Assembly: GCA_963810095.1 (NCBI GenBank)
Contig: CAWEMM010000006.1
Location: 416,001 to 480,000 of the forward strand
Direction of reading: 5' to 3'
Length of the DNA stretch: 64,000 nucleotides
Source of the DNA: an uncultured Chloroflexia bacterium
GTDB taxonomy: Bacteria; Chloroflexota; Anaerolineae; CG2-30-64-16
A program made the translations under genes and the position numbers. The notes beneath the pieces are model-generated. The model was not told where the DNA came from and ran no database searches. It worked only from the letters and a program-made list of their open reading frames with translations. Shown here piece after piece: positions 37,554 to 53,951 of this stretch. Within the stretch, counting starts at the first letter, position 1. Each line of letters begins with the position of its first letter.

Positions 37554-37582
37554 TTGACTGATACTGCTCAGAATGATAGTAT
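37554..37582 (+). promoter_or_regulatory. Promoter of the left tRNA-Arg
   Basis: TTGACT-17bp-(TGa)TAGTAT, 24 bp upstream of the tRNA. Confidence 0.65.
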
Positions 37583-37605: not shown

Positions 37606-37679
37606 GCCCCCGTAGCTCAGGTGGATAGAGCGAGGCACTCCTAACGCCTAGGCCGAGCGTTCGAGTCGCTCCGGGGGTA
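37606..37679 (+). tRNA. tRNA-Arg(CCT), left copy (attL)
   Basis: Cloverleaf GCCCCCG/CGGGGGT, D arm GCTC/GAGC with A20, anticodon loop CT-CCT-AA, T loop TTCGAGT; CCA not encoded. Confidence 0.92.
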
Positions 37680-37681
37680 CT

Positions 37682-37740
37682 TTACTACTACCTGTAGTGT
37701 TTTTCCCTCAGAATTCCCCATATATAGTGGTAGCGCTGTC
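37682..37740. repeat. Left internal inverted repeat of the island (two palindromic boxes)
   Basis: ctactacctgtagt...cccatatatagtggtagcgctgtc matches the reverse complement of 53807-53867. Confidence 0.85.
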
Positions 37741-37754
37741 CAGGAGTAAGGTGG

Positions 37755-38684
37755 ATGGCGCGCATAGACCTAGGAACTCGTTTAAAAGTAGTTCAATCCC
37801 AACCGGCATCGGACATTCAGCAGGCGGGTGATTTGTTCCTGCTGGACTGCCGCGCCCGGCGTCTCAGCCCCGGCACGCTCGATAGTTACACCCGGCGCAT
37901 GCGTAGTTTTCAAGCTTGGTTCCACGAAAACGGCATCACCCGGCTCGTGGACCTCACGTCTCATCACATTCGCGCCTACCTCGTGCACCTTCAAGATCGC
38001 GGCCTGGATGACGACACGGTCATCACCGAGTACCGCGTGTTGCGGGCCTGGCTGAACTTCTGCGTCCAGGAAGAAATGATCAGCGCCAGCCCCATGAAAA
38101 AAGTACGGTCCCCGCGCTTGCCCAAGGAGATTCTGCCTGCCTTCGCGCCCGAAGATGTACAGAAGCTTCTCGCAGTCTGCCAGACGCCGCGCGACAAGGC
38201 CATCATCCTCTGCCTGCTCGACACAGGCTGCCGGGTGTCGGAGTTCGCAGCCCTCAACATCGGCGATGTGGACGCGCAGAACGGCGCGGTCCAAGTGAAG
38301 CTCGGCAAGGGCCGCAAGGACAGAATCGTATACTTGGGGGCCAAGGCCCTGCGCGCCCTGCTGAAATACCTGCGCACCCGGCCAGACTCCAAGCCCGCCG
38401 ATGCGCTGTGGCTGAGCGAGAAACGCCGGGAGCGACTGACGCTGTGGGGCCTGGAAGAGCTTCTGTCGCGGCTTGGGAAGCGCGCGGGCGTCGAGCACGT
38501 CAACCCGCACACCTTTCGGCGGTCATTCGCGCTGTGGAGCCTGCGCAGTGGCATGGACATCTTTAGCCTACAACGGCTGATGGGCCACGCCGACCTAACC
38601 GTTCTTCACAGGTATCTCGCCTTGGTAGAAGGCGACCTTGAAGCCGCACATCGGCAGCACGGCGCGGTCGACAACATGCTGTAA
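37755..38684 (+). CDS. Tyrosine recombinase/integrase, XerC/D-like (core-binding + catalytic domains only)
   Basis: DTGCRVSE (R), GKGRKDR (K), HTFRR, MGH, RYL catalytic set intact; N-terminal SAM-like domain; 309 aa. Confidence 0.93.
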   Translation: MARIDLGTRLKVVQSQPASDIQQAGDLFLLDCRARRLSPGTLDSYTRRMRSFQAWFHENGITRLVDLTSHHIRAYLVHLQDRGLDDDTVITEYRVLRAWLNFCVQEEMISASPMKKVRSPRLPKEILPAFAPEDVQKLLAVCQTPRDKAIILCLLDTGCRVSEFAALNIGDVDAQNGAVQVKLGKGRKDRIVYLGAKALRALLKYLRTRPDSKPADALWLSEKRRERLTLWGLEELLSRLGKRAGVEHVNPHTFRRSFALWSLRSGMDIFSLQRLMGHADLTVLHRYLALVEGDLEAAHRQHGAVDNML

Positions 38685-38806
38685 CCCTTGCTGCGGAGCT
38701 TCAGCACTGGCGGTGGTCCTTGCCGGAGGTCGTCACACGGCCACCGGCAAGTTGCATTTTGCGCCCGGCCAGCAGGCGACGATCTTGCAGTGAGGGGAAA
38801 AGAGCC

Positions 38807-39214
38807 ATGCGTACACAGACTATTCTGAACAAAGCCATGGTCCAACGCCTCTATGAGGACGTCTGGAACCGAAATGACCCGGCGGCAGCCGCCGACATCT
38901 TCGCTCAACCGAGCGGCGCCCAAGCCTATGTCAGCCAGTTTCGCGCGGCGTTTCCGGACGTGCACCGTACGGTGCTGACAATGGTTGCGGAAGGGGACGT
39001 CGTGATGACGCACTGGACAGCCCGGGCAGCCCATCTGGGCCAATGGCACGATCTCGCCGCCACCGGCGCTCGCGTGCGTTGGACAGGCGTTACCATCGCC
39101 CATGTGGCCGATGGGAAGATCGTGGCGGACCAGACGGTGTGGGACGCGCTGGGTCTGTTGGAGCAGACCGGCGCGGTCCCGCGAATCAGGGAGGCCGACG
39201 GTACTCAGCTGTAG
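38807..39214 (+). CDS. SnoaL-like ester cyclase / NTF2 fold
   Basis: NKAMVQR, FRAAFPD, VAEGDVV, ATGARV, DGKIV. Confidence 0.85.
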   Translation: MRTQTILNKAMVQRLYEDVWNRNDPAAAADIFAQPSGAQAYVSQFRAAFPDVHRTVLTMVAEGDVVMTHWTARAAHLGQWHDLAATGARVRWTGVTIAHVADGKIVADQTVWDALGLLEQTGAVPRIREADGTQL

Positions 39215-39439
39215 TCGGGGTTAGGAGCCGCACGCTGCGCGTAAGGGCCTCCCGCTTGATCGCGTCCGGAATGCGGAGGGCTGGAACCCGCCAGCCACCC
39301 CGATACATCGCGGCTGCGTAGAATGCCGATCAGCCTGCGGCTACCAGGACATATGCCGACCTCGTATCGCATGCTGCCACCAACCTCGCTAACCTATGCG
39401 AGCTTAAGCCGGGACAAGCATGTCTTTGTTTGTCGGGCC

Positions 39440-39616
39440 ACACGCGTCCTGGTGCCTCAGATTGCGCGCAACCTGCCTCGGCGCGCGCCGCAAAACAGTC
39501 GTACAATAGGAACGCGCAGCAGATGACAAACACTGCTCGCCGCGCATGACGAAGCAGCATGACCGTACCAGAGGTCCTTTCTGATGTTGGAGAGCCTGTA
39601 ACGCCGAGGTATCTGA
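39440..39616 (+). pseudogene. Decayed 3' end of a tyrosine recombinase (relic 1)
   Basis: Frameshifted translation LRAT...NAQQM..HCSPRMTKQHDRT...; ends 3 nt before the GNAT ATG; 52/68 nt identical to relic 3 over 39498-39565 vs 45180-45247. Confidence 0.65.
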
Positions 39617-39619
39617 TCA

Positions 39620-40411
39620 ATGAAATCGTCTGCTGAGTTGTTGGCCGCGTCGGACGCCAACATGATTGCGTTCTGGTCGGCCTATGGTCGCGGGGCTGGC
39701 TGCACCTCGCAGGTTGCGCCGGGCGTGGTCTGGGTCTATACGGGCATCCCGACCCCGTTGTTCAACTGCGTGCTGCTGTCCGACGCCGGGGCAGCGGATG
39801 TGCAGGCGACTGCGGACGCGGTCCGGGCGAAGATCGATGAGCGGGGCGTACCGGCCATGTGGTGGGTCGGCCCGCAGGCTGGGCAAGACGACGTCGCCCC
39901 GCGGCTGGAGCGGATTGGCCTTGCCCCTGCCGGGGAAGTGCCCGGCATGGCGCTCGACCTGGCGCTGCTGAATGACGCACATGAGGCGCGTCCGGAGTTC
40001 ACAGTCGAGCGCGTCCACGGGACCGTGATGCAAGCGCTGTGGGGGCACACTGCCGGGATCGGGACGGGTTTCCCGGATGAGACCAGCGCCGCGCTGGCAC
40101 AGGTTGAAGCGACCCTGAACGACTCGGAGTATCTGGCGCAGCGCCGCTATATCGGTTACTTGAATGGCGAGCCGGTGGCGACGTCGGCCCTGGTATTGGC
40201 TGCGGGAGTGGCAGGCATCTATGCCGTCGCCACAGTGCCCGCGGCCCGCCGCAGGGGCATTGGTCGGCTGATGACGGTGCTCCCACTACTGGAGGCCAGG
40301 CGGGAAGGTTATCACAGCGGCATCCTCCAGTCGTCGGCGATGGGCTATCCGGTGTACAAGGCGATTGGTTTTGAAGAGGTGAGCCGGTACAGGCTTTATG
40401 CGCAGGCTTAG
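39620..40411 (+). CDS. GNAT-family acetyltransferase
   Basis: GEPVAT, AGIYAVATVPAARRRGIG, YKAIGF. Confidence 0.88.
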   Translation: MKSSAELLAASDANMIAFWSAYGRGAGCTSQVAPGVVWVYTGIPTPLFNCVLLSDAGAADVQATADAVRAKIDERGVPAMWWVGPQAGQDDVAPRLERIGLAPAGEVPGMALDLALLNDAHEARPEFTVERVHGTVMQALWGHTAGIGTGFPDETSAALAQVEATLNDSEYLAQRRYIGYLNGEPVATSALVLAAGVAGIYAVATVPAARRRGIGRLMTVLPLLEARREGYHSGILQSSAMGYPVYKAIGFEEVSRYRLYAQA

Positions 40412-40439
40412 TGGATCGCGCCAGGCTTGCGACATCGAG

Positions 40440-40790
40440 GGCAGCGCGGCCTCAACCCGCGCCTGGGGGAGGCTCGGAGACATCAGCCCGCCGGTCGGCC
40501 TGGCACCAGCACCTATACGGTCAGCCTGTCCCTGGTTGTCGAGCCGCTTGTGAAGACCCAGGCGGGTGCCGCGCGCATCACAGCCCGCGCAGCGCGCCCT
40601 GGCCCTGGACTGGCTGTGGGCCAACTACCACGGCAAGGCCAAGTACAGAGACGTCTGGTTCGAGTGGGCAGGCAAGCCGCTGCTCATCGCGTTCGACCCG
40701 ATGACCTTAACGATGCGAGTGTCGGCAACATATCCCATCAGCTACATGATCCGGAACTGGACGGGTCGCCGCGGCGCAGATCGAAGTTGA
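40440..40790 (+). pseudogene. Fragment of a larger protein (glycoside-hydrolase-like?)
   Basis: ALDWLWANYHGKAKYRDVWFEWAGKPLLIAFDP looks coding, but has no start and is truncated. Confidence 0.35.
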
Positions 40791-40870
40791 CGCCTCTGAG
40801 GACTGTATGTCGTTGAACGACTTTCGCATGGCCTTCACTTAATTCACATTTTCCATCCCGACGTCCCTCT

Positions 40871-41221
40871 CTACTCTGCTTTATCCGCGGCTCTTATTAT
40901 GGTCTTGGCAGCTTCTCGGTCAACCGATTCCTGATAGATGTCGGCGTAAGTTTTCAAATCTTTGATCAGATCGTCACAGAAAGCCGCCACGTCTCTGCCC
41001 GTCACTTCGAGCACGCCTTTCCCCGCGGCCGCGCCCGCTTCAAAGAGATCAATGATCCCCGAGAGCAAACCCGTCCCCTCGCTTAGCTCTACCGGGCCGA
41101 CCTTGAAGAGATACTGCTGAATCTCCTTGTAGACAATCTGGTAGTCCCGCGGGAGCGCATTGACACGCGCCATGTGCGCTCGCCACTCTTTTTTGCCTTC
41201 GATCATATCTCGTATGCTCAT
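40871..41221 (-). CDS. DUF1048-family protein
   Basis: KKEWR...LPRDYQIVYKEIQ...GRDVAAFCDDL. Confidence 0.88.
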   Translation of the reverse strand: MSIRDMIEGKKEWRAHMARVNALPRDYQIVYKEIQQYLFKVGPVELSEGTGLLSGIIDLFEAGAAAGKGVLEVTGRDVAAFCDDLIKDLKTYADIYQESVDREAAKTIIRAADKAE

Positions 41222-41230
41222 GCTGTCCTC

Positions 41231-41578
41231 CTACTTGCCCAATTTCCTGGCGACATTGTTGTTCAGCTGCTCGCGCCACTTATCGCGATAGGACTGTGCC
41301 CCTGCTTCGCCAGCGAGCGCAGCACAGAAGCCGCTGATGTCGTCACCCAAGACCTCCTTAACGCTCTGACCCTCCGCCGCCGTTTCTTCGAGCAGGCCAA
41401 GCACACCGTCAAGAATGGGCATGAGGTTGCGACCGGCAAAGTCTGTGTACGGCCAAAGATTGGCGTTGACCTGCACCCATGCCGTTTGATAATCAGGCGG
41501 CAGCTTTTTGGCTCGCGACTCGAAGGTCTTCCATTCCTTCTTCATGTCACTGCCAGTAATCTTGTCCCAGAAGCTCAT
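41231..41578 (-). CDS. DUF1048-family protein
   Basis: SFWDKITGSD...LPPDYQ...LGDDISGFC...YRDKWREQLN. Confidence 0.88.
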   Translation of the reverse strand: MSFWDKITGSDMKKEWKTFESRAKKLPPDYQTAWVQVNANLWPYTDFAGRNLMPILDGVLGLLEETAAEGQSVKEVLGDDISGFCAALAGEAGAQSYRDKWREQLNNNVARKLGK

Positions 41579-41904
41579 TGTTTCTTCTCCTTCAACTCCC
41601 TGATTTTTGATGATACAAACCCCCATTTCGTCCAGAACGCGGCGAGTTCCTGCCGCCCCGCCTCGTTAAGCCTGTAGAACTTGCGCGGCGGCCCCATGTC
41701 GGACGGCCGTTTTTCGATATCCACGAGGTTGTTCTTCTCGAGCCGGACCAGGATGGTATAGACCGTCCCATCTACAACGTCCGAGAATCCAAGCGCGTTC
41801 AGCCGCCGGGTGATCTCGTAGCCGTAGATTTCCTCGTGGCTGATGATTTCAAGAACACAGCCCTCCAGCACGCCTTTGAGCATTTCAGTTAGGTTTTCTG
41901 CCAT
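41575..41904 (-). CDS. PadR-family regulator
   Basis: EMLKGVLEGCVL, YGYEI, GTVYTILVRLE, GPPRKFY. Confidence 0.92.
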   Translation of the reverse strand: MAENLTEMLKGVLEGCVLEIISHEEIYGYEITRRLNALGFSDVVDGTVYTILVRLEKNNLVDIEKRPSDMGPPRKFYRLNEAGRQELAAFWTKWGFVSSKIRELKEKKQ

Positions 41905-41964
41905 GCAGCTTCACTCCCATGCTATCCTGTATGACCTGTATTGAGTGTGACTTAGTACTGGTAT

Positions 41965-41993
41965 AAAGTAACACAGAATAGCGTGGCTGTCAA
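41965..41993 (-). promoter_or_regulatory. Promoter of padR-DUF1048 operon
   Basis: TTGACA-17bp-TACTTT. Confidence 0.55.
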
Positions 41994-42217
41994 TGGTTTG
42001 ATCGCCAACATCCGTCATGATAAAGGTTCTCCCACGCGTGCTGGTCAAGCTCCCCCTGGGGGCATTGACTAATACAGGCCATTGCGTGCAATCCCCCCAC
42101 CCTAGTGTCGAGCGCCGCGGGGAGTAGGATCGCTACCTGCCACAGGCCGTGTCCGCAGGCGCTAACTTAGCAGAAGCAGCGCGCCAACCCCTCTCACGTC
42201 ATCCCTTCCCGCACGCC

Positions 42218-42303
42218 AAGAAGAAGCAGAATAATAAGAACAATCAGAATCCACAGGTTAGGGGGTGTAAGGTTCTGATCACTCTTCTTCTTCTGATCGT
42301 TTT
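42218..42303. repeat. Purine/pyrimidine (AAG/CTT) imperfect inverted repeat
   Basis: aagaagaagcagaataataagaacaatcagaa...ttctgatcactcttcttcttctgatc. Confidence 0.55.
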
Positions 42304-42429
42304 CCACCCGCGGCTGTGGACACCTAGCCGATGTGGCGGGCATGCACGCACAACCGCCGCCCCTCGACAGTGCGCACGAAACGCGGCTGGCTCTCGCTGT
42401 GCAGGTCGTGGCCCAGGGGATCAATCCCA

Positions 42430-42620
42430 TGCCACAGCCGCGGTGGACCTGCGAATCGCCATCATGCTGCGCAGTAAGCTTCACCGCCTGCCTACACATC
42501 GGTGGTACAATCGAGCCTGCACAGCAGATGGCAACCACGGATCGCCGCGCACGACCCGGCTGTATGACCGGACCAATTGCGCGAGCAGCCTGGCTGGATC
42601 GACAAGCTAATTACACTCCG
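42430..42620 (+). pseudogene. Decayed 3' end of a tyrosine recombinase (relic 2)
   Basis: CAVSFTACLHIGGTIEPAQQMA then (frameshift) NHGSPRTTRLYDRTN. Confidence 0.75.
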
Positions 42621-42690
42621 ACCGTGAGGGTGAGCGGCTTCAAGGGTGCCAGGTGTATGTCTACCAGCCCATTAAGGGGAAGGTGCGAAC

Positions 42691-43074
42691 ATGGAGACGA
42701 CAACACTGCCCGACCAGCCCGATGGGAAATCACCCGCAGGGGCTGACATCCGCTTCCTGGTGGCTGGCGCAACCGGCAACATGATCCACAGCACCGTCCC
42801 GCCGCGCCAGGTAAACCGGGCGACGGTCCACGCGACGGTAAGCGAGTTCTGGTATGTCTTGGAGGGACGCGGCGAAATCTGGCGCGACAACGGTGTGGCG
42901 AGTTGCGTCACGGCGCTTGTTCCGGGCACCGCCATCGATATTCCTGTCGGGACCGCGTTTCAGTACCGCAACCTCGCGGACACCGAGCTTAAGTTCATTT
43001 GTGTCGCCATGCCGCCGTGGCCCGGCGCTGCCGAAGCGAGCTGTGTGGAAGGTATCTGGCGACCAACCGTATGA
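42691..43074 (+). CDS. Cupin-domain protein
   Basis: HATVSEFWYVLEGRGEIWR, IPVGTAFQYRN, MPPWPG. Confidence 0.85.
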   Translation: METTTLPDQPDGKSPAGADIRFLVAGATGNMIHSTVPPRQVNRATVHATVSEFWYVLEGRGEIWRDNGVASCVTALVPGTAIDIPVGTAFQYRNLADTELKFICVAMPPWPGAAEASCVEGIWRPTV

Positions 43075-43189
43075 CCTTCGCGCGCCTACACCGGCGGCTG
43101 AACTTACCAGTGCCTCCGGGTCAACACATGCCCAGTCAATTCAAGAGTCAGTAGTTACGTCGCCTCCACACCCGGTCAACGAGGTGCTT

Positions 43190-43578
43190 ATGCAGATCAA
43201 GTTTGTCAGCATCACTGTAGAAGATCAAGAGCACGCTCTTGACTTCTACACCTCCGTCCTCGCTTCCAGAAGATGGCGGACATACCCACGGGCCAGTTCC
43301 GCTGGCTGACCGTGACCTCGGCCGATGGTATCGCGGGCACGGAACTCGTGCTGGAGCCAGCCGCCTTTCCGCCTGCCCAGGTATACCAGAAGGCTTTGTT
43401 TGAAGCGGGCATCCCAGCGACTGCCTTCATCACGCAAGACATTGCCGCCGAGGTCCAGCGCCTCCAAGCGCGGGGGGTCAAGTTCCGCGGCGAGGCGACA
43501 CATAGGGGACCGATCACGGCGGCGCTATTTGAAGACACTTGCGGAAATCTCATCAATCTCGTTCAGCCGGACGCCTGA
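43190..43578 (+). CDS. VOC/glyoxalase-family protein (indel near 43262)
   Basis: SITVEDQEHALDFYT..., RWLTVTS, ELVLEP, FEDTCGNLINL. Confidence 0.85.
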
Positions 43579-43621
43579 CCCGCTGTTGGGGGCGGCGTGC
43601 CCCGAAGCTGCACATTAGGGC
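43573..43621 (+). repeat. Degenerate, shortened attC-like hairpin
   Basis: GCCTGAC (overlaps stop codon)...ttgggggc/gccccgaa...ATTAGGGC. Confidence 0.35.
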
Positions 43622-44318
43622 GACCAAATGCTACGCGCCGGTGCGCTTGCCGCAGTGTTGCCCAACCCCCGGCCATCCCTGCGCCTGGCGCTTGCTCTAA
43701 AGGCCCACTTGCGCAAGGCTCCCACCGTAGTAGTACCCAAGGCGCGTCCGGTGCAACCTATGGCAAAAGGCGGGTGGACGACCAGGAAACCCAGCGACGG
43801 CCGCCGCCGGGCAAAGACGGTGATTTCCCGGCATGATCGCGGCTGCCGCCGAGCCAGGGACATGGCAGGCCAGAGACGGCGCGGGGTGGACGGTCCCGGC
43901 GAGGATCGACCGTACGGTCGGGCCGGGCAACATGGATGCGGGCAGGGTTCCCCACGGCCCGACGCTGCCATGACGCCAACCTGCCGACCATAGGCCAACC
44001 TCAGCTACAGTTATCGTGTCTTATATGCAGGAGACATGCCGCGTGCCGGGCGTGTAAATGACACTGGACTCTATGGAAGAGGTCGGCTGGGTCAGCGAAG
44101 CTGGAGTAGGTTAGCACAAACGAAAAGGCCGACGTAGCTGAACGTCGGCAATCAGGTTGGCCCGCGCAGTTGGGCGTGCGGCCGGACGTGTCACGCGCCG
44201 CGGCCCCGCAGGCTCAACTTCGGTACTTCGCTCTGTGGGGGTCAAGCGGTGCAGCACATGCTCACCCATCCAGTCGGACGGGGTCGTCAAGGCAAACGGG
44301 CAACCGTGCTGCCGCGCG

Positions 44319-44600
44319 TCAGACGGCAACCTGATCCGGGGCATAGATGACGACGAACGTGTCCCGTCGGTCAGCAAACCGCACCTCGACAGCCCACGAG
44401 CCGGGTTGCTGATCGGGATGCACGCTGGCAAGTGTCGACTCGGGGAAGGCGGCCAGCAGCCGGGTTAGGCGCGGGTAGAATTCCTGTGGCAACTCCCCCA
44501 GGTTGCTGCCGACCGGTACGTCGTCAGCTGGTCGTGGTGAGGGCAATTCGGCGTGGGGTTGTGCTTCATAATCCGGCGTTATCATCTCGTGTAACCTCAT
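44319..44600 (-). CDS. Hypothetical protein
   Basis: Plausible ORF with protein-like composition; no motif recognised. Confidence 0.4.
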   Translation of the reverse strand: MRLHEMITPDYEAQPHAELPSPRPADDVPVGSNLGELPQEFYPRLTRLLAAFPESTLASVHPDQQPGSWAVEVRFADRRDTFVVIYAPDQVAV

Positions 44601-44644
44601 TCTATCCGTCGCAAGCCAAGGCTTGCGCGAGTGGCTCCAGGCTG

Positions 44645-44971
44645 TCAAATAGCCCCTACCGGCCAAGGTTCGCACGCGGCGAACATGACCAGTGCGCGCC
44701 GCCTTGCCTCAGTCTGGAGGATATCGCGCGCAAGGTGGTAGTTGAAACATGCCGACCCAGGGTGCTCCCCCGCCCGCGCCGCAATCGGGCAATCGGCCGG
44801 GCAACTGGGCAAAGCCTCACGCAGCGTCTGGTAGTTTGTGTACTCATCCAAGACCCGCGCCATGACGTGCCGGTATTCGCCCGCCCGGTGAAAATCCTCC
44901 GGTATCCGTTCCACTTGTAGAAGCAAACACAGCCGGATCGCCGTTTCCGTCACTTCGCACACGGTCATCAT
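44645..44971 (-). CDS. Hypothetical protein (Cys/His containing)
   Basis: RBS gggag before ATG; CPADCP...H..SAC motif. Confidence 0.45.
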   Translation of the reverse strand: MMTVCEVTETAIRLCLLLQVERIPEDFHRAGEYRHVMARVLDEYTNYQTLREALPSCPADCPIAARAGEHPGSACFNYHLARDILQTEARRRALVMFAACEPWPVGAI

Positions 44972-45039
44972 AGCGTCGCTCCCGAGAGGGGGAACATCTA
45001 CCCCCACCATCCAATCGTACGCCCGGCTGTCAAGCGACA

Positions 45040-45296
45040 TTGCGTGAGGCATTGCCCGCAGAACGGTCGACGGCCCGCACCGCGTGGTGCACCCCCCCGA
45101 CAGCAGGTGAGCCGGAACACCGCACACGACCTGCTGCCAAACATTCCGCGCAACTTGCAGCACCCCCGGCCTCAAAATAGTCGTACAATTGGAGCGTGCA
45201 GCAGAGCACGGACAACGGTCGCCGGGCACGACCACGCTGTATGACCGCATCAGCAACGCCATGAGCCTGGATGAGATCGAGCGCATGCTTATTCAG
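45040..45296 (+). pseudogene. Decayed 3' end of a tyrosine recombinase (relic 3)
   Basis: AGTPHTTCCQTFRAT (45129-45155 = TCCQTFRAT) then SPGTTTLYDRISNAMSLDEIERMLI. Confidence 0.8.
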
Positions 45297-45341
45297 GCAG
45301 CAGAATCGCGATGCCAAAGAACCGCCGGTGGGAGGTCAAGT

Positions 45342-45666
45342 ATGACTGAATCGATGCCACGCATTAGCAACGCTTTCCAAACCTTAATGAGCGATGCGCC
45401 GCACCACGCCCGGGCGTGTTGCGGCATGGTACAAGGGCCTCGCCCAAGCCAGCGCCCTGGATGGGAAAACCGCCGCTTTATGCTACCTGGCGGTGTTGGC
45501 GGCCCTGCGGCTGGAGAGCGGCATCCCCTTTCACGTTCAGGCCGCCAAGCGGGCAGGCGCAACCCGCGCGGAAGTCATTAGCGCCGTTCTGATCGGCTTG
45601 CCTGCGGCCGGACATGGCGTGACGCAGGTCCTGCCGACGGCGCTCGCCGCTTTCGATACGGATTGA
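45342..45666 (+). CDS. Carboxymuconolactone decarboxylase/AhpD-like protein (indel near 45410)
   Basis: ISNAFQT..., SALDGKTAALCYLAVLAA, GIPFHV, GATRAEVISAVL. Confidence 0.8.
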
Positions 45667-45854
45667 GCGCGGCAGTGCCGTGCCCAGGGCTGGGCGGGAC
45701 TCTGAACGGGCATGGGTCAACCCCGCTCAATTCGGCGCTGGAGTGGGCAGCCGAGGCCGGGACGGGGCAATGACCCGGGCAGCGCAAGACCCGGCCAAGA
45801 CGCGGGCTGACACAAGCAGCGTCAGCGTCGAGGCCGCATTATGGCGTTCAAGCC

Positions 45855-46037
45855 TCAGGACGCCCCAGGTCCGGTCTTGTCATCTTTCGGCTGCCGCTCA
45901 TGCTCTGCTCGCCGTCGGGCAGCTTCGGCAACGCGCCGCAGGTTCGCGATGGCCGCGGCGATCTCTTGGGCCACCGGACCTTGGCCTTTCTTTCGGTTGG
46001 GGCGCGAAGCATCCTCGGGTCGTTTGTCTTGCGTCAT
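45855..46037 (-). CDS. Small hypothetical protein
   Basis: 60 aa ORF with an amphipathic helix. Confidence 0.3.
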   Translation of the reverse strand: MTQDKRPEDASRPNRKKGQGPVAQEIAAAIANLRRVAEAARRRAEHERQPKDDKTGPGAS

Positions 46038-46231
46038 ATGGGCAAAACGAAGCGCAAGTAGTCGGAGTTCCTTGGGCGTGGTCCCGCCCAGGCATGATTG
46101 TCGGATGAGGTCGGACGGTGTATCATCCCGTCCGACCTGTGGGGTTCACCATCTGCCACGGTCTGGCTGTCGGTGTCGGCGCGAAGCGGGCTGTCTTGCC
46201 GGGCCGACACTCCATCATTCCGGAGGGCATT

Positions 46232-46699
46232 ATGAGCATGGCACAGTCGCGACGGCCATTTTGGGTCTATCTGCTGGTATTCTTTTGCGTGGTTCTCGGG
46301 TTGGGCGGCCTGTACGGGGGTGTGTCGTTCATCACCGATCCGACGGGCGCAGCGATGGGCATGGACGTCAGCATGTTGCGCGGCTTCATGAACACCTACC
46401 TGCCGTTTGGCGTCTTCCTGCTGATCGCGTTCGGGATCGCGCCGCTGGTGCTGGCGTGGGCGCTGATCGCGCGGCCGCGCTGGTTCCCAGCCATCACGCG
46501 GGCGACGGACCGGGATTGGGCCTGGGTCGTGACGCTGGCAATGGGCGCGGGGCTGCTCGTGTGGATGGCGGGCCAGTTCATCATCATGGGCTACCAAGCG
46601 CCGATCCAGGCCTTCACGACCTCTCTGGGCGCGGTCATCACTCTGTTGAGCCTGGTTCCTTCGGTACGGCAATACTACCGCGTCAGCGCGCGAGCTTGA
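46232..46699 (+). CDS. 4-TM membrane protein
   Basis: GGVSFITDPTGAAMG, YLPFGVFLL, WMAGQ; RBS ggagg. Confidence 0.75.
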   Translation: MSMAQSRRPFWVYLLVFFCVVLGLGGLYGGVSFITDPTGAAMGMDVSMLRGFMNTYLPFGVFLLIAFGIAPLVLAWALIARPRWFPAITRATDRDWAWVVTLAMGAGLLVWMAGQFIIMGYQAPIQAFTTSLGAVITLLSLVPSVRQYYRVSARA

Positions 46700-46869
46700 C
46701 GCGCCACGGTGTCCATCGTGGCCCAACGTGTAGGGCCACCTAAGCCATGGAGTCTCACACGCGTGGCCGCTGCCGAGGGTGTGCGTGCATCACCATGGCG
46801 TGCACTGTGCGATAATGAGTAGTTAGCTGGACTCACACTCACCATGACTACCAGGAAAGGAGAAGTCGC

Positions 46870-47502
46870 ATGACCTTGATCGCAATCAACGTACTGCTTG
46901 ATCCAGATGCCGCCACGGTCGAGCGGGCACAGGCGACGAACGCCCGGCTACGCGAGGACTATCCCGATGGTTTCGCCCTCGACGCCAACCACGCGCCGCA
47001 CATCACCCTGCTCCAGCGGTTTGTGCGGACGGCGGACCTTGACTGGGTCGCGCATGCTGTGGCCGAAGTGCTGCGCACAGAGCAGTCGATGAACTGGGAG
47101 AGCCATGCGACCGGCTACTATGACCTGGCCTACAAGAATCTCGGATTGGTGGGCATCGTCATCGAACCGACCGAGGATTTGCGGCGACTTCAGCAGAGGA
47201 TCATCGACGCCGTCGCCCCGTTCGCCGTGGAGAAGGGGACAGCCGAGGCCTTTGCCCCCCGCCCCGACGGCGCAGCGATCAGTCAGCCGACAGTGGACTA
47301 CGTGAACAACTTCGTCGGCACCCGCACCGGCGTGAACTACCACCCGCATTTGACCGTCGGCATAGGAACCCGCGGCTTCGTGGACGCTCTGAAAGCGGAG
47401 CCATTCCAGGCCTTTACCGTCCGGGCAGTATCCGTGAGCCTCTACCAGGTAGGGGATTACGGTGTGGCACAAAGGAAGCTCTATGACCTCCACCGTTGCT
47501 GA
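46870..47502 (+). CDS. 2H phosphoesterase / 2'-5' RNA ligase-like protein
   Basis: Two HxT motifs: PHITL and PHLTV. Confidence 0.8.
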   Translation: MTLIAINVLLDPDAATVERAQATNARLREDYPDGFALDANHAPHITLLQRFVRTADLDWVAHAVAEVLRTEQSMNWESHATGYYDLAYKNLGLVGIVIEPTEDLRRLQQRIIDAVAPFAVEKGTAEAFAPRPDGAAISQPTVDYVNNFVGTRTGVNYHPHLTVGIGTRGFVDALKAEPFQAFTVRAVSVSLYQVGDYGVAQRKLYDLHRC

Positions 47503-48424
47503 TCCACTACCCTCCTGGAATGATAGCCCCTCAAAGCAGGGCATCCTTGCGTTTGTCGCCAGGGTGACACAGGAAGGTTCACCCGACTTCGTGCCACTGG
47601 CAGAACGCATCGCCGTGCACGACAACGACGGCACGCTCTGGCCGGAAAATCCGCTGCCGTTTCAGGCGGCCTTTGCCATCGATGAACTTAACCGGCGCGT
47701 CCTCGCTGAGCCTGGACTCGCGGCCGATCCGATGGTGCAGGCCGCCCTGTCCGGCGACTTTGCCAAGCTCCTGGCAGGCCAACACCTGGATGGCCTCATG
47801 CAGGTCGCGGCGCTCACCCATGCTGGGATGACGACCGACGCGTTTCGTAACGCTGTGGAGACATGGCTGGCGACGGCCAAACATCCGCGGTTTGGCAGAC
47901 CCTATGACGAACTCACCTACCAACCCATGCAGGAACTCCTGCGCTATCTACGCGCCAATGGCTTCAAGAACTTCATCGTTTCCGGCGGCGGCGCGGACTT
48001 CATGCGCGTGTGGGTCGAGCGCGTGTACGGCATACCACCGGAGCAGGTTGTCGGCTCGACAACGCGGCCGACATTCGAGCTACGCAACAGCGGACCAGTG
48101 CTGACCAAGACGCTCGACTATTTATTCGTCAACGACAAGGAGGGCAAGCCGGTCGCCATTCATCAGTTTATCGGCCGACGACCGGTGATCTGTTGCGGGA
48201 ACAGCGACGGCGACCACGCCATGCTCCAGTACACGACGATCAACAACCCGCGCCCGAGTTTCGGCCTCATCGTCCACCATACGGACAACGAACGCGAGTA
48301 TGCCTATGACGCCGAGACGAAGAGCACCGGCAAGCTTGTCGAAGCCCTTAAGGAGGCCCCCAAGCGCGGCTGGGTCGTCGTGGACATGCAGCAGGACTGG
48401 AAGACCGTCTTTCAGTCCGATTAG
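47483..48424 (+). CDS. HAD-family acid phosphatase
   Basis: DPLPSWND, HDNDGTLWPE, IVSGGG, GNSDGD. Confidence 0.9.
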   Translation: MTSTVADPLPSWNDSPSKQGILAFVARVTQEGSPDFVPLAERIAVHDNDGTLWPENPLPFQAAFAIDELNRRVLAEPGLAADPMVQAALSGDFAKLLAGQHLDGLMQVAALTHAGMTTDAFRNAVETWLATAKHPRFGRPYDELTYQPMQELLRYLRANGFKNFIVSGGGADFMRVWVERVYGIPPEQVVGSTTRPTFELRNSGPVLTKTLDYLFVNDKEGKPVAIHQFIGRRPVICCGNSDGDHAMLQYTTINNPRPSFGLIVHHTDNEREYAYDAETKSTGKLVEALKEAPKRGWVVVDMQQDWKTVFQSD

Positions 48425-48461
48425 AGGTAACTCGTGGCAGGTCGACTTCGGTTCTGCCAGC

Positions 48462-48553
48462 CTACAACGGCCATAGACATCGACCGCCGAAGTGTTGCGC
48501 TGGTCGCCTGATGAAGCCTGCGCCGCAGCGCGCGGTTCAATACGCACTTAGGG
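48462..48553 (+). repeat. Degenerate attC-like site
   Basis: CTACAAC-ggcca-tagacatcgaccgc...gcgcggttcaa-tacgcaCTTAGGG. Confidence 0.35.
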
Positions 48554-48689
48554 ACGTCGAGCGTTTGTCGCCCGCGAAGGATCGGCGCGCGCTTCTTGGC
48601 TGAAGCTGAGCGACGGACACGGTCGGAAGGGGCCGCGAGTGAATGTATCCGTCTGTAGAACAACTCGGCCCCTTGCGCAGGAGTCGGCC

Positions 48690-49220
48690 ATGCCCGCACC
48701 CGTTCTTGTCCTGCCCGGCCTCGGCAACTCGGGGCCGCTGCACTGGCAATCCATCTGGGAACAGGCACATCCCGAATTTGTACGCGTCCAACAGCGCGAT
48801 TGGGATAACCCGGTTTGCCCAGAGTGGGTTGCCGCCATCGAGGCAGCCGTGCAGCGTGCCGGGCCGGATGTTGTGCTGGTCGCACACAGCCTCGCCTGTT
48901 TGGCCGTCGCCCATTGGTCGGCCAGCCCGCATTCACCCATTAAGGCCGCGCTGCTGGTTGCAGTACCCGACCCCGACTGCCCCGAGTATCCCGGGCACCT
49001 GCTTGGTTTCTCCAAGCCCCCCACCGAGCAGTTCACCTTTCCCGCCGTCGCCGTCGTCAGCGCCGATGATCCATATAGCACACCGGAACACGCCGAGCAG
49101 CTTGCGGCCGCTTGGGGCTGTCGTGTCGTTCGTGTCGGTGCTTACGGCCACATCAACGCCAGCAGCGGCCTTGGCGCTTGGGCCGAGGGTTATGCGTTGC
49201 TGGACCATTTGCGGAGCTAA
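48690..49220 (+). CDS. RBBP9/YdeN-family alpha/beta hydrolase
   Basis: PGLGNSGPLHWQ, VAHSLAC, SADDPY, GHINASSGLGAW. Confidence 0.92.
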   Translation: MPAPVLVLPGLGNSGPLHWQSIWEQAHPEFVRVQQRDWDNPVCPEWVAAIEAAVQRAGPDVVLVAHSLACLAVAHWSASPHSPIKAALLVAVPDPDCPEYPGHLLGFSKPPTEQFTFPAVAVVSADDPYSTPEHAEQLAAAWGCRVVRVGAYGHINASSGLGAWAEGYALLDHLRS

Positions 49221-49311
49221 CCCTTCGTTCGGGGCGGAGGTGCCCGCGGTTGCGGTTCTCGGTTGGGAGAGGGCATCGCCGCCGAGCAGTCCCCTGACTC
49301 CAACGTGAGAC
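49215..49311 (+). repeat. Degenerate attC-like site
   Basis: GCTAAC (contains the stop codon)-ccttcg-ttcggggcgga...tcccctga-ctccaac-GTGAGAC; ~97 bp. Confidence 0.5.
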
Positions 49312-49465
49312 AGTCAAGTCGCCCGGACCTGCGCGCTCCCAGAAGCTTGTGGCACCTGAGGTTGATTCCCAAGTCTGCCCGCCGCTATCGCCTGCCTGCC
49401 GGGCTAGGTTAGTGGTAGCCCCAACTGATCGAGCGGCGCGGTTTTCGACACTGCGGGCTGTGGGG

Positions 49466-50267
49466 TCACGCCGCGCCGCGTTTTAGTGTCGTGGTGCTGT
49501 CAGGGTGGCTCGACAGGCCCGCTCTGACATACGCCAGGCCCTCCAACCAATCCGCCGTCTCGTACACGCACTCACCGTCGGGCCGAAAAAGGTAGCCGCC
49601 GCCCGGGAAATCTTCATCTACGGTGCGCCCGGCCTGCGTCGCCACCGCAATCCACAGCCGGTAGTCGCGCGCGTAGGCTGCCAGGTACTGGTGGCACTCG
49701 CCGCGCCACCACGCGTAACCTGACCGCCAGTCGCGGGTGGCTTGCTCCCCATACAGACCCGGCGCAGCCACCTCAAACACCACCTGGGCACCCTGGCGGG
49801 CGCAGGCGGCGAAAACATCGGGGTTGTGGATGTCGGCGCAGATGGCGATGCCGTAGGTGAGATCGTCGTGGCGAAAAACAGGCACTGCGTTGCCCGGCGC
49901 AAACCAGGCCGCTTCCTCATCCACAATGGACACTTTGCGGTAGTAGCCGACCAAGCGGCCACCACGCGCCGCTACATGGGTGATAAATGGTTTGCCGGAT
50001 GGGTTCGCCTCTACCAATCCGGCGAGCAGGGTCGCCCGACCGTTGGCCGTCAGGGCGACAAGCGCCGCGACTTCGGGGCCATCAAGCCGCAGGATGGCCC
50101 CTGGCTGGCGCGTGGGGTCGATGTAGCCGGTCAGGCTCATTTCGGGGCACGCCACGATGCATGCGCCCTCCTGGTCGGACTGCTGGTACACGCGCTCGAT
50201 GGCGGCCAGGTTCTCGGCCACGGCCGCCTTCTCAGCAGCGCAGTTGGGCCAACGCCAGTGTTACCAT
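49466..50267 (-). CDS. Carbon-nitrogen hydrolase (nitrilase family); indel near the 5' end
   Basis: PEMSLTGY, YRK, AICAD catalytic triad motifs. Confidence 0.88.
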
Positions 50268-50408
50268 GCAGGGCAGTATAGCTAGCGGTGAGAAGAGGGT
50301 CAACCAGAGCGCGTCCGGGCAGAAATCGTAATGTTGCTCACGCGGATTTCACAAATGCAGCACTAAAGTAGTGAAATCGCCGTACTACCCATGACTAAGG
50401 AGAGCCAT

Positions 50409-50705
50409 ATGGAAGGTCCGATCTACAAATTCTTCCGTGTGCAGTGGACCGAGGCGGGGTATCAGTTGGGCCAGGCGGGACGCGACAACCTGCTAGCCAA
50501 AGAGGCGGAGCTTCGGCAGCAACTCGGCATCAAGAATGTGGTGCTCTGCAACTCGTTCTGGAGTGACGAACGCTGGGCCGCGTATGGGGTTCACGAATAC
50601 GCCGATATTGAGGCCGTGCGTAAGCACAACGCCGGGATGGTAGCGCTGGACTTGTTCCGCTACCTTGAATCCGAAACGATGTTGGGCACGGCCTGGGGGA
50701 GCTAG
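50409..50705 (+). CDS. Small hypothetical protein (ferredoxin-like/GYD-like fold?)
   Basis: RBS aaggag; WSDERW..YGVHEY...YLESETMLG. Confidence 0.6.
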   Translation: MEGPIYKFFRVQWTEAGYQLGQAGRDNLLAKEAELRQQLGIKNVVLCNSFWSDERWAAYGVHEYADIEAVRKHNAGMVALDLFRYLESETMLGTAWGS

Positions 50706-51101
50706 CCAGAGCCACCGGCCAGCCGCCTGCGTCGCGCACAACTCCTGTGAGTTCGCGCATTCGGAGTTACGAGCGTGGGTTGTCGCGTGTTTGGGAAACC
50801 AGGCGGCCTCGACGGCGGGCCGGTACGACGCACGCGTGGGGTGTGGGCCGCGCGCGGCCGGGAGCCGCGCGGCAATTCATATGACTTCGAAAGACGCGCG
50901 TCTTCCCCTTTGTAGATCGTCGGCGCGTTGCACGGCGCAGTCTGCCGAACGTCTTGACGCGTCCTGGCATGGCGCGACAATCGGTTCGTGCTGCGCGCTG
51001 TGATGTTCATTCCGCCTCAGTTCCCACAGAACAAGAGCCGGAGCAGTCACACAGCGCAGCGATCTGGGTCTGACAGCGGGCGAAGGGAGCCGCCGGAGGC
51101 C

Positions 51102-52040
51102 ATGCCGACCCCACGCCAGGATACCTCGCCAGACACCGCCCTGCGAACGCATGGCCTGTGCAAGGACTACGGCCCGATCCAGGCGGTCGTCGGCCTGGAC
51201 CTCCATGTGCGCCGCGGCGAAATCTACGCCTTCCTCGGCCCCAACGGCGCGGGCAAGACCACCACGATCCGCATGCTCCTGGGTCTGGTCCGACCGACCG
51301 CAGGTCAGGCCACCCTCTTGGGCGCACGCGTTGCGGCGGGCAGCAACCACGTCTTCGCCCGCGTGGGTTACCTGGTGGAAACGGCCACGGCCTATCCCAA
51401 TCTTACCGTGCGCGAGAACCTGGACATCCAGCGGCGACTCACGCGGGCACCCCGGGCGGCGGTCGGTGATGCCATGGAGCTTCTTGGCCTTGCCGGTTCA
51501 GCCAATCGGCAGGCGGGCCAGCTATCGCTCGGCAATAAACAGCGGCTGGCGCTGGCGCGCGCCCTGCTCCACCGCCCCGAGCTACTCATCCTCGATGAAC
51601 CGGCCAATGGGCTTGATCCGGCCGGGATCATCGAGGTGCGCGAGCTGCTGCGGCGCTTGGCGAACGAGAACGGCGTGACCGTCTTCCTGTCAAGCCACAT
51701 CCTGGCGGAGGTCGCGCAACTGGCCGACCGCATCGGCATTATCCACCAGGGCCGCCTGCTTCAGGAACTCGACTACGCCGAACTCCGCCGCCGAACGCGC
51801 CTGTACCTGGAAGTCGAAGTGAGCGAGCCAGACCGCGCGGCCGGGCTGTTAGCCGCGCGCCTCGGCATCACGGCGTTGGAGCGCACGCCCGAGGGTGGGC
51901 TGCGCCTCTTTGAAGGCTTCGACCGGCGCGCCGAGATCGCGCGCACCCTGGTCGAAGCTGGACTCGACCTGACGCACCTGGCCCTGGCGCAGGAGGACCT
52001 GGAGTCCTACTTCATGCGGCTGACGGGGGGTGCCGGGTAA
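51102..52040 (+). CDS. ABC ATP-binding protein (BcrA/lantibiotic-immunity type)
   Basis: GPNGAGKTT, LSLGNKQRL, LDEPANGLDP, SSH. Confidence 0.9.
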   Translation: MPTPRQDTSPDTALRTHGLCKDYGPIQAVVGLDLHVRRGEIYAFLGPNGAGKTTTIRMLLGLVRPTAGQATLLGARVAAGSNHVFARVGYLVETATAYPNLTVRENLDIQRRLTRAPRAAVGDAMELLGLAGSANRQAGQLSLGNKQRLALARALLHRPELLILDEPANGLDPAGIIEVRELLRRLANENGVTVFLSSHILAEVAQLADRIGIIHQGRLLQELDYAELRRRTRLYLEVEVSEPDRAAGLLAARLGITALERTPEGGLRLFEGFDRRAEIARTLVEAGLDLTHLALAQEDLESYFMRLTGGAG

Positions 52041-52823
52041 ATGTTCGGCCAAGCCGTCGTCACCGAGTTCCTGAAGCTGCGCCGGTCCCGGATCACCTGG
52101 TTTTCGCTGCTCGCACTGTCGCTGGGGCCGCTCGGCGGCGCGCTCTTCATGTGGATCGTGCGCGAGCCGGGCCGCGCGGCGCAGCTGGGCCTGCTCGGCA
52201 CCAAGGCGAACCTCGCCGGTCTTGAGGCAACGTGGCCCGCGTACCTGGCGCTGCTAACGCTGTTTGTCGGGATCGGCGGGATGCTGCTGCTGTCCTTCAT
52301 CGTCGCTTACGTCTTCGGCCGGGAGTACGCCGAGGGCACCGCAAAGAACTTGCTCGCGCTGCCGGTGGCCCGCCCCTCGTTCGTGCTGGCGAAGTTTGTG
52401 GTCGCGGCGGCGTGGTGGCTGGCCCTCGTCGCGGCGGTCCTCGCGGAGGCATTCGTGATCGGGAGCGCGCTCGGGTTGCCTGACTTCGCGCCGGGCCTGG
52501 CCCTCAGCGCCGGGCGCAATGCGCTGCTGGCCGCAGGCATCCCGTACCTGCTCGTGCCCGTTGTCGCGTGGATCACCCTATTGGGGCGCGGCTACCTGGC
52601 CCCGCTCGGCTTCACGCTGGCGATGCTCGTGCTGGGTAACGTGTTCGCCCGGACGGGCTGGGCACCCTGGTTCCCCTGGTCGATTGGGGCGCTGCTGCTC
52701 GGCACCGTCGGTCAACCGGCGCAGACATTGCCGCCGGGCAGCTTCGTCGTGCTCGGGCTGACATTCATCGCAGGCATCGCGGCCACCATCTGGCAGTTCA
52801 ACTACGCCGACTGCAACCAGTAG
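52041..52823 (+). CDS. ABC-2 permease (BcrB-like)
   Basis: EFLKLRRS, VFGREY..GT.KNLL.LP, FPWS. Confidence 0.85.
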   Translation: MFGQAVVTEFLKLRRSRITWFSLLALSLGPLGGALFMWIVREPGRAAQLGLLGTKANLAGLEATWPAYLALLTLFVGIGGMLLLSFIVAYVFGREYAEGTAKNLLALPVARPSFVLAKFVVAAAWWLALVAAVLAEAFVIGSALGLPDFAPGLALSAGRNALLAAGIPYLLVPVVAWITLLGRGYLAPLGFTLAMLVLGNVFARTGWAPWFPWSIGALLLGTVGQPAQTLPPGSFVVLGLTFIAGIAATIWQFNYADCNQ

Positions 52824-53806
52824 GCTCGCGCCGCAGCAGATAGGGGGCCGCGTCAGATTACCAAGCAGCTCCGATTCCGGCCTTTCTCTGCCCAACCAGG
52901 CCGCGCCGCCAACCTTCCAACTTACTCCAGCCTTAGCCCAAGACATCATGTCTCGATTGAAGGCCGACTGCGAACACGGATCGAGCGAATGACACCACGT
53001 TCTATCAGAAAGGTTGGCGTAGGTCGGCGGAAGCGGCTGACGTGCGCCATCCGGATGGGCTGTGGCGGGATGGCGAGAGGTGCATTGCCTTGTCGAGCAG
53101 TATCGTGGCGCACTGCCGGGGGCTGCGTGTTCAAACCCGCGCTGAACACGTCACCTGCCGCACAATGGCAATCGCTGCATGACAGCCATAAATGAGTCGG
53201 ACAAAAGCCCTGCTGTGCCATCAAGTTTTGATGGGGTCAGGCGGGGCTGTTGCGGCCACGCGATTGATCGGAGTTGAGATCTGGCGGCGCGGGGCGCTGC
53301 TGTCGATGACAAGGCGTGGGCCGTCAAGTGCGATGGCATGCGTCGAGCGGCTGCACCGGGTGCGACTGTGATGGCGCAATCAGGCCGGTCGCGTTGAAGC
53401 CCATCCTGCTGGTCGCCGGGCGGCCGCAGGGGTATGCGGTGGTCGAGCTAAATGAGCTACACGCCAGGCAGCGCGATTACGAATCGCCTAGCTGACCCGC
53501 GTGCCGCGACGGCGCGCGTCGGCTTTGGCGACGTTGTTTGCAACAACGGCCGTCGCTGGCAGCCGCTAAGATTGCGGCGTCGAGCCGCGCACGGATCGCA
53601 GGCGTGCCGGGCAAAAGTCGGGCAGCGAACTGAGCCGCTGGGATCGGAAATCTAGACGAGGTCGATGTTTTGGCAGAGTTGGTGCACAATGCGGACGATG
53701 GCTGCGAGTACTCGCTCTTGCGGTCTGGCCGTCGCTCCGATATAATCATGACGCTAAGCCAGCAAAATACAGCAAGGAATTCGCAAAATTCCTAAAATTC
53801 AAAGGC

Positions 53807-53941: not shown

Positions 53942-53951
53942 CTGGTTCGAT

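Follow-up and report, generated by a model that had tools for sequence, protein, structure and literature searches.

The stretch of DNA considered here, referred to as the window, is 64,000 nt on contig 6 of a Chloroflexota genome (a 6.13-Mb, 16-contig assembly, all of which was scanned). It contains a 16.2-kb island lying between two copies of a tRNA-Arg(CCT) gene, and just inside each tRNA copy is a pair of 16-nt palindromes. These sites score like native operators of the repressor NrdR, and their position is conserved across a clade of Xer-like integrases, one of which is encoded by the first gene of the island (int). The four palindromes are, to judge from their sequence, very probably true NrdR sites, so that the reading given in the original prediction, which was made from the letters of the window alone, is supported, and none of its refuting conditions that can be checked by computation was borne out. 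The explanation that we find best, and hold with moderate confidence, is that the island carries its own NrdR operators and that NrdR would there repress int; NrdR binding, repression of int and any effect on recombination are what we infer from the sites. The features concerned are as follows.

37606..37680, + strand: tRNA-Arg(CCT), left copy, core of the left junction (identified with ARAGORN)
37685..37700: left inner NrdR-type box, CTACTACCTGTAGTGT, 4 nt past the tRNA copy
37715..37730: left outer NrdR-type box, TCCCCATATATAGTGG, with a 14-bp linker to the left inner box
37731..37740: 10-nt block beyond the outer box, complementary at 9/10 positions to 53806-53815
37755..38684, + strand: integrase, 309 aa, Xer-like, two domains, first gene of the island
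53816..53831: right outer NrdR-type box, ACACCATATATGGGCA, with a 15-bp linker to the right inner box
53847..53862: right inner NrdR-type box, ATACTACCGGTAGTAG, ending 5 nt ahead of the right tRNA copy
53868..53942, + strand: tRNA-Arg(CCT), right copy, core of the right junction (identified with ARAGORN)

The original prediction described 37682-37740 and 53807-53867 as imperfect inverted repeats inside the tRNA copies. Local alignment of 37682-37760 with the reverse complement of 53790-53867 covered about 60 nt, with two gaps of 1 nt each, and scored 28. The score for 2000 shuffles had a mean of 7.7 (standard deviation 1.4, maximum 17), and for 3000 random inverted pairs taken from the window a mean of 8.8 (maximum 20), which bears out the description. 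The 37682/53867 pair is not among the 25 longest of the 183 inverted pairs found by an ungapped repeat finder, which we attribute to the gaps. The four palindromes are at the positions claimed for them, with centres 30 bp apart on the left and 31 bp apart on the right, and conservation is indeed concentrated in the boxes, together with the 10-nt block beyond the outer boxes; the linkers are poorly conserved between the island ends. The 10-nt block is not accounted for by NrdR boxes, has by eye no counterpart in the paralogous island on contig 7, and could be a further protein site. All four boxes contain C4, A6, T11 and G13. In the AT-rich centre (positions 4-13, criterion at least 63%) three boxes have 5/8, 7/8 and 6/8 AT, and the right inner box has 4/8.

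The boxes were scored with an NrdR matrix. This genome has one nrd promoter only, and the matrix was therefore trained on relatives: it is symmetric, 16 nt long, and was refined on 28 stretches of 350 nt, one from upstream of nrdR in each relative, with neither this genome nor the island included. The seed was the consensus quoted in the original prediction, which is said to originate with Rodionov and Gelfand in 2005. The best palindrome pair upstream of nrdR is spaced 31-32 bp in 27 of the 28 relatives, the exception being a genome with no convincing site. Only 8 of the 6,131,153 positions in the genome reach 16 bits. Among them are the left inner box (18.7 bits, rank 2) and the right inner box (16.0 bits, rank 8); the left outer box follows at rank 16 (14.6 bits) and the right outer box at rank 281 (10.1 bits). 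The 14 central nucleotides of the right inner box are also found in the nrdR promoter of a relative from the same genus.

When boxes are required to be in pairs (spacing 29-33 bp, summed score at least 20 bits, each box at least 6), seven loci remain in the whole genome. Six of them mark the ends of tRNA islands whose integrases are Xer-like paralogues, and the remaining one is the nrdR promoter; a shuffled sequence of 3 Mb contained one qualifying pair. The scores of the pairs are:

36.3: right end of the tRNA-Ser island, contig 7 (best in the genome)
33.3: left end of the window's island (second best)
32.6: site abutting tRNA-Gly(TCC), contig 12
28.0: between the 5' half of tRNA-Gly(TCC) and a frameshifted integrase, contig 14
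26.1: right end of the window's island (fifth best)
25.2: left end of the contig-7 island
24.5: nrdR promoter

The contig-7 island (104646-115897, about 11 kb, at tRNA-Ser(GGA)) has an NrdR-type pair at each end and encodes an integrase with 47% identity to that of the window. The first 6 nt are missing from its right tRNA copy, in whose anticodon stem there are 2 mismatches, and a second, broken integrase gene is found near the right end of the island. On contig 14 (315264-316315) the 5' half of tRNA-Gly(TCC), positions 1-40, is followed by an NrdR pair and then by the frameshifted integrase, and on contig 12 (745704-745831) an NrdR pair abuts a full tRNA-Gly(TCC); it is probable that the assembly has broken up a single island, of which these sites are the ends. 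A strong NrdR-type box (16.0 bits) with a weak partner lies beside the 3' end of tRNA-SeC on contig 13 (79853-79901). This may be an island remnant, since relatives have integrases at tRNA-SeC.

Homologous integrases were collected at two levels. At the level of the family, 13 of 37 genomes contained a homologue at E ≤1e-45, giving 21 loci; at the level of the class, 29 of 301 sampled genomes did so, giving 25 further loci. In 28 of these 46 loci the 450 nt ahead of the integrase contain a pair that scores 19 or more and is placed between the tRNA and the integrase gene (11/21 for the family and 17/25 for the class, where 3 of the other 8 had little or no upstream DNA). The same threshold was reached by 2 of 109 equal-sized control pieces of the same loci. 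The target tRNAs are varied (Arg-CCT, Arg-TCT, Gly-CCC, Gly-TCC, Met, Ser, Leu, Lys and Thr), and the layout is constant: at most loci the first box begins -1 to +5 nt past the tRNA, the widest gap being 14 nt at a tRNA-Ser, and the second box ends about 18-29 nt ahead of the integrase start codon in those loci where the start was checked. Spacing of 31-32 bp is seen in 24/28 left and 11/12 right island pairs, and C4, A6, T11 and G13 are all present in 24/28 left first boxes. Median pair scores are 29.3 for the left island pairs (n = 28), 31.0 for the right (n = 12) and 33.9 for native nrdR promoters. The expectation that boxes and spacing would be conserved in homologous elements, at many different tRNAs, is thus upheld.

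A quick maximum-likelihood tree of 57 rows places all 26 box-bearing rows inside one clade of 46, with 97% support. Within this clade is a subclade of 12 rows that has no boxes. Loss of the boxes through loss of NrdR was considered and is ruled out, because nrdR was found in all five genomes of the subclade that were tested. The existence of a box-less sister subclade in hosts with nrdR argues that the boxes are an added control, and not a requirement of the recombination chemistry. Among more distant integrase homologues across the phylum (29-44% identical, mostly adjacent to tRNAs) a pair was found in 0 of 21, with a best score of 13.8. A scan of a genome collection for related loci gave one distant Clostridium relative, and the nearest protein clusters in a language-model look-up are mostly from Chloroflexota, which is a lead rather than a taxonomic assignment. 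The islands and temperate phage-like elements of this clade are those of a class that probably lies within Chloroflexota.

Where the integrase gene contains internal stop codons (contig 8 and two homologous loci, L050 and L059) one or both boxes have decayed. The contig-8 locus (53589-54677) consists of tRNA-Gly(CCC), two decayed box-like palindromes, one seemingly with a 2-nt insertion, and an integrase pseudogene with three stops. Three relatives from the same genus have the tRNA-Arg(CCT) locus in a form that does not contain this island. There are no boxes at these loci, and the boxes therefore belong to the island and not to the tRNA locus. At two same-genus loci (L119, G004 contig 51; L120, G007 contig 4) there is a 0.5-kb insert 3' of tRNA-Arg(CCT), which ends in a partial tRNA copy from about position 20, and has no integrase and no NrdR boxes; in L119 it holds two small genes that by eye are HicA/HicB-like.

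The host has the regulator that the prediction calls for. There is one nrdR gene in the assembly, directly upstream of a class II ribonucleotide reductase on contig 14, and nrdR is present in 41/41 genomes of the same family and class. D15, R17, the RRRR motif and both CxxC pairs of the host protein are invariant across 19 sequences, and its DNA-contact residues are thus conserved. The contig-14 locus is the only reductase locus in the genome, and the NrdR-type sites of the window are therefore not in a ribonucleotide reductase promoter. The reductase large-subunit match 3' of nrdR (contig 14, 110222-111759) is in two adjacent pieces (profile positions 1-352 and 364-523), which could reflect a frame change, an insertion or a split gene.

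The sites can be compared with published biochemistry. According to three papers (PMC13584703, PMC12051234, PMC9110341), NrdR requires two 16-bp boxes with a linker of 15-16 bp, about 14-18 bp being tolerated; it binds DNA only with dATP plus ATP; and D15 and R17 are reported to contact C4 and G13. The right linker in the window (15 bp) is within the optimum, and the left (14 bp) is within the tolerated range. A mutational study from 2026 (PMC13584703) gives C4 and G13 as critical and A6 and T11 as apparently critical, and the central AT as dispensable provided that the centre remains AT-rich. Comparison with the E. coli nrdAB boxes of that study shows the left inner box, read as its reverse complement, to be identical to box 2 over its central 12 nt. 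The right inner box agrees over its own central 12 nt with a mutant of box 2 that was still bound by NrdR at 127 nM, and the left outer box has 13/16 positions in common with box 1.

The likeness to NrdR sites might be a convergence, the boxes being bound by the integrase or by some other protein of the element, or the palindromes might be RNA hairpins. The boxes travel with one integrase clade, as sites for an element protein would, and TnpI of Tn4430 is reportedly a recombinase which has no arm-binding domain and itself binds accessory repeats. Convergence would, however, have to produce the same length of 16 nt, an AT-rich centre and all four critical positions, as well as the pairing at 31-32 bp, which mirrors the NrdR tetramer, and integrases that are only 40-55% identical to that of the window retain the box consensus of the host nrdR promoters. 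There is no second protein common to all the islands that might bind the boxes. RNA hairpins would be expected to show compensatory changes, whereas it is the letters that are conserved, and many of the boxes are only partly palindromic. We consider these alternatives together to be most improbable.

If the four boxes are NrdR sites, the mechanism would be as follows. The island would carry two NrdR operators, and in each of these the two 16-bp boxes would be set at a distance of three helical turns. Excision would bring the two pairs together on either side of one complete tRNA-Arg copy, within whose anticodon stem-loop the crossover would fall, and the second pair would be followed by the ribosome-binding site and the integrase gene; integration would leave one pair at each junction. 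Host NrdR carrying ATP plus dATP would bind as a tetramer and kink the DNA at each box. The pair beside the integrase gene would block its transcription, whether by covering the promoter or by halting transcripts that arrive from the tRNA, and both pairs lie within a few bp of the recombination core. A fall in dATP relative to ATP would release NrdR from the DNA, whereupon the integrase would be made and the core freed.

Repression of int is the role that we favour. The second left box ends at 37730, and the ribosome-binding site AGGAG is at 37742-37746, so the left boxes do lie just upstream of it, as had been noticed; the gene starts 24 nt past the second box. Because the pair on the integrase side is between the tRNA and the ribosome-binding site, any int transcript either starts in the pair or crosses it. 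Native NrdR sites overlap transcription starts, according to PMC9110341, and by analogy NrdR bound at this pair should repress int. Given NrdR binding, we regard such repression as likely. Two further features bear on the route.

37554..37582, + strand: promoter-like site (TTGACT, 17 nt, TAGTAT), in the chromosomal flank upstream of the left tRNA copy
53966..53983, + strand: terminator-like hairpin and T run, in the chromosomal flank past the right tRNA copy

The first of these is the nearest upstream of the tRNA among three promoter-like matches in 37450-37850, and no terminator-like site was found between the left tRNA copy and int. In the window's island, read-through into int from the tRNA promoter at 37554-37582 is plausible. 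Promoter candidates picked out by eye (for example TTCAAA, 17 nt, TAGTAG at the right end) were inconsistent across islands and were set aside.

Several observations weigh against operators acting through repression of int. Scans of the region between the tRNA and int, and of the right end, gave no sigma-70-like promoter, and the route of repression is one that we infer. In two related islands (in genomes G110 and G150) the tRNA is on the strand opposite to int, and read-through from the tRNA therefore is not a general route. The pair is missing at 18 of the 46 close homologous loci, including the 12-member subclade. Of the window's own sites, the right outer box is weak (10.1 bits), and the left linker of 14 bp is one below the optimum; in PMC12051234 the affinity of E. 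coli and S. coelicolor NrdR is about 2 to 3.5 times weaker at a 14-bp than at a 15-bp linker. No credible inward-facing gene was found behind the right pair in three islands of this genome. The right pair cannot regulate int when the island is integrated, and repression of int alone thus leaves its retention in 12 of 14 islands unexplained.

ORFs at the right ends of the three islands (including 53477-53749, minus strand) were considered as targets of NrdR and rejected, as they are of low complexity by eye and absent from the families shared between islands, which include no other right-end ORF either, the third island lying outside that comparison. Three options remain for the far pair: it acts on int in the circle only, where the other pair would follow it about 130 bp downstream; its target is the neighbouring tRNA copy; or NrdR acts on recombination itself, by bending or masking the arms.

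The retention of both pairs was established from 14 islands that could be delimited by a second tRNA copy; in six further cases there was no second copy in the DNA fetched. Pairs are present at both ends in 12 of the 14, the other two having no right pair. In most of the islands checked, the far-side pair either stops 0-8 nt short of the tRNA copy or runs a few nucleotides into it. Both tRNA copies are full length in 7/14. Of the partial copies, one, on the integrase side, has only positions 1-40, and another, in a different island, is reduced to the part from about position 28 to the 3' end; a further tRNA copy differs from its partner solely in the 5' strand of the anticodon stem. The segment common to all the partial copies is the anticodon stem-loop, and this is presumably where the crossover takes place. 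A constant distance from anticodon to box was considered, being +51.5 bp in both the window and the contig-14 island, and was rejected, since it differs at tRNA-Ser, at tRNA-Leu and in viral contigs.

The integrase alignment was also used to search a public viral collection, giving 80 loci. A pair is present at 11/80, and in 3/80 the pair, a tRNA-derived core, a second pair and the integrase form one contiguous stretch, two of the three cores being half-tRNAs. The distance between the pairs in these three contigs is 62, 73 and 82 nt. Such a contiguous arrangement is what the unintegrated attachment site should look like, and is hard to derive from an integrated junction, though tandem insertions are possible. 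At one locus (L100, in G301) the left tRNA copy is preceded by 20 nt that repeat the box sequence of the far end, which suggests two islands in tandem at one tRNA. One viral contig has a thymidylate-synthase-like gene (L177, 4734-5743) about 2 kb downstream of an integrase whose attachment site has NrdR-type pairs on its flanks, so that a gene of nucleotide metabolism is part of this element. A PHROGs search of six ORFs beside one viral-contig integrase gave thymidylate-synthase-like matches only, and no excisionase.

These arrangements bear on whether NrdR is mainly an architectural or occluding factor for recombination, with tetramers on both arms bending the DNA and so shaping the complex or masking the core. 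Such a role would explain why the pairs are on both sides of the core in 12/14 islands and contiguous with it in the three viral contigs; why they hug the tRNA at most loci (-1 to +5 nt on the integrase side, 0-8 nt or overlapping on the far side); and why the right pair is kept with no gene to regulate. It also suits an integrase with no arm-binding domain, and an NrdR tetramer that kinks DNA by 90 degrees at each box (PMC9110341). On the other side, the distance from pair to pair is not fixed, as the viral contigs show, and the pairs are further out at the longer tRNA-Ser; the sister integrase subclade works at tRNAs with no boxes; and the published NrdR octamer buries the DNA-binding faces of its two tetramers, so that bridging of two DNA-bound tetramers has no structural precedent in the available part of PMC9110341. 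A structure prediction for NrdR with the integrase gave no support for contact, which counts neither for nor against. The variable distance and the box-less subclade lead us to argue that NrdR is a layer of control and not part of the catalytic architecture, and we regard the mainly architectural role as unlikely. That NrdR acts directly on recombination in addition to repressing int is somewhat less doubtful, and is put forward tentatively. The broadest version, in which NrdR is a dNTP-sensing accessory factor of recombination for the whole Xer-like clade, its tetramers on the two arms determine if and when the element integrates or excises, and the dATP/ATP ratio gates movement of the element beyond transcription of int, we think rather unlikely.

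A further possibility is that the boxes are decoys, which would titrate NrdR and so raise expression of the host reductase, the more so after excision and replication, and would so provide the dNTPs with which the element replicates. Six of the seven pairs in the genome are on islands. Genes of primase or helicase type (PriCT_2 and/or AAA_25) occur in at least four of the 13 islands compared, which makes replication probable for some of these elements. A decoy, however, would have no need to be placed so regularly, close up to the tRNA core on either side and directly upstream of int, and the window's island has no replication genes. We rate decoys as very improbable, and continue to prefer operators controlling int.

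The element itself is an ordinary tRNA-integrated island, apart from the duplication of the whole tRNA. It has an integrase with its catalytic set, which adjoins the tRNA, and a tRNA direct repeat at both ends, which are the features of an island integrated by a tyrosine recombinase. The repeat (37606-37681 / 53868-53943) is 76 nt long and 100% identical, and contains both tRNA-Arg(CCT) copies; an Rfam search of the window matched the two tRNAs and nothing else. The integrase matches Pfam Phage_integrase (1.5e-34) and has an N-terminal SAM-like core-binding domain. Ahead of the SAM-like domain are about 27 residues with no further Pfam domain, and the statement in the original prediction that the protein has no arm-binding domain is therefore correct. 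Its best family models are XerA, XerC and XerD, yet it scores below their curated cut-offs; the nearest solved structures are those of XerA and XerD. R160, K185, H252, R255, H278 and Y287 are invariant across 21 homologues, and we take them to be the catalytic set. The remainder of the island is:

38685..53805: cargo genes (SnoaL-like, GNAT, PadR with DUF1048, LigT-like, HAD, CN-hydrolase, ABC transporter)

No recognisable excisionase, replication or transfer genes were found in this cargo. The integrase is the sole gene common to 13/13 islands compared, and the cargo differs. The second and third most widespread ORF clusters among the islands are on the opposite strand within the integrase gene, and were discarded as shadows, not genes. 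The integrase clade thus spans cargo islands, probably replicating elements and phage-like genomes. Within the window's island are three copies, 63-73% alike, of a repeat of about 100 nt (39485-39600, 42490-42600 and 45165-45275). Each opens with a conserved GTCGTACAAT, which resembles a -10 element, and has a shared stretch around an ATG; they have no Rfam match, and may provide three cargo units with a shared promoter or leader. Four public DNA runs contained 30-37% of the sampled words, and no RNA run containing them was found. The contigs obtained from the four runs, which were short and of low depth, gave no joint across the island or circle junction over 36300-55000, and are uninformative on excision.

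If the proposal is true, the integrases of mobile elements join the NrdR regulon, in which six of the seven paired sites in this genome are on islands, and the dATP/ATP balance joins the host signals that control gene mobility, among which the SOS response is the textbook case. For elements that replicate after excision, or that might sense a phage draining the pool, a link to dNTPs would be sensible. NrdR from E. coli and S. coelicolor binds heterologous boxes, and the inner boxes of the island share their 12-nt centres with E. coli boxes that are bound by NrdR. Mirror-image sites around a whole tRNA would be an unusual design of attachment site for a recombinase with no arm-binding domain. 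The layout shared by related islands and phage-like elements suggests that the integrase, and possibly movement, is tied to the dNTP status of the cell.

The original prediction knew of no description of such a system, and full-text searches turned up no paper in which NrdR boxes are connected with mobile elements, their integrases or their attachment sites. NrdR and mobile-element terms both occur in PMC4989314, where they are unrelated. In the text covered by such searches, NrdR is described as a repressor of ribonucleotide reductase genes and treated as specific to them, and no other kind of target was found.

Known systems nevertheless offer comparisons. The NrdR operators of nrdAB, nrdHIEF, nrdDG and nrdRJ are alike in having two partly palindromic 16-bp boxes, with C4, A6, T11 and G13 and a linker of 14-16 bp, and the island sites have scores comparable to those of the nrdR promoters of their own lineage. 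They differ in being on mobile DNA, in two copies that flank a tRNA attachment site, with one copy upstream of an integrase. Control by LexA and the SOS response, in integron integrases (reportedly described by Guerin and colleagues in Science in 2009) and in the induction of prophages and integrative conjugative elements, similarly places a site for a global repressor of the host before the gene for a mobile recombinase. There the signal is DNA damage, whereas here it would be the dATP/ATP balance, and the operator is on both sides of the core.

At the plasmid sites cer and psi, Xer recombination uses the accessory factors ArgR or ArcA, with PepA. It resembles the island in having a Xer-type recombinase with no arm-binding domain, and metabolic regulators of the host (predicted, for the island) beside the core. 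At cer and psi, however, the accessory DNA is on one side of the core and the reaction is resolution of dimers by host XerCD, while the island has sites in mirror order on both sides, a tRNA core and its own integrase, and integrates and excises at a tRNA gene. In attP of the lambda type (with IHF, Xis, Fis and arm-type Int sites) the core is likewise flanked by sites for DNA-bending host proteins, and one arm goes to each junction; the island differs in having no arm-binding domain and no arm-type Int sites, in its mirror-image arms, and in the use of a nucleotide-sensing repressor as the predicted bender. Tyrosine integrases that target tRNA genes are said, in an account by Williams in Nucleic Acids Research in 2002, to have their crossover in the anticodon loop. 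Their islands and phages are alike in having an integrase beside a tRNA and a tRNA repeat at both ends, with the anticodon stem-loop shared, whereas in the present family the whole tRNA is mostly carried (both copies being full length in 7/14) and is sandwiched between NrdR-type operators. Judged by its sequence, the system looks like control of a mobile recombinase by a regulator of the host, which would be novel in its signal, in its symmetry and in having an arm-less integrase of its own.

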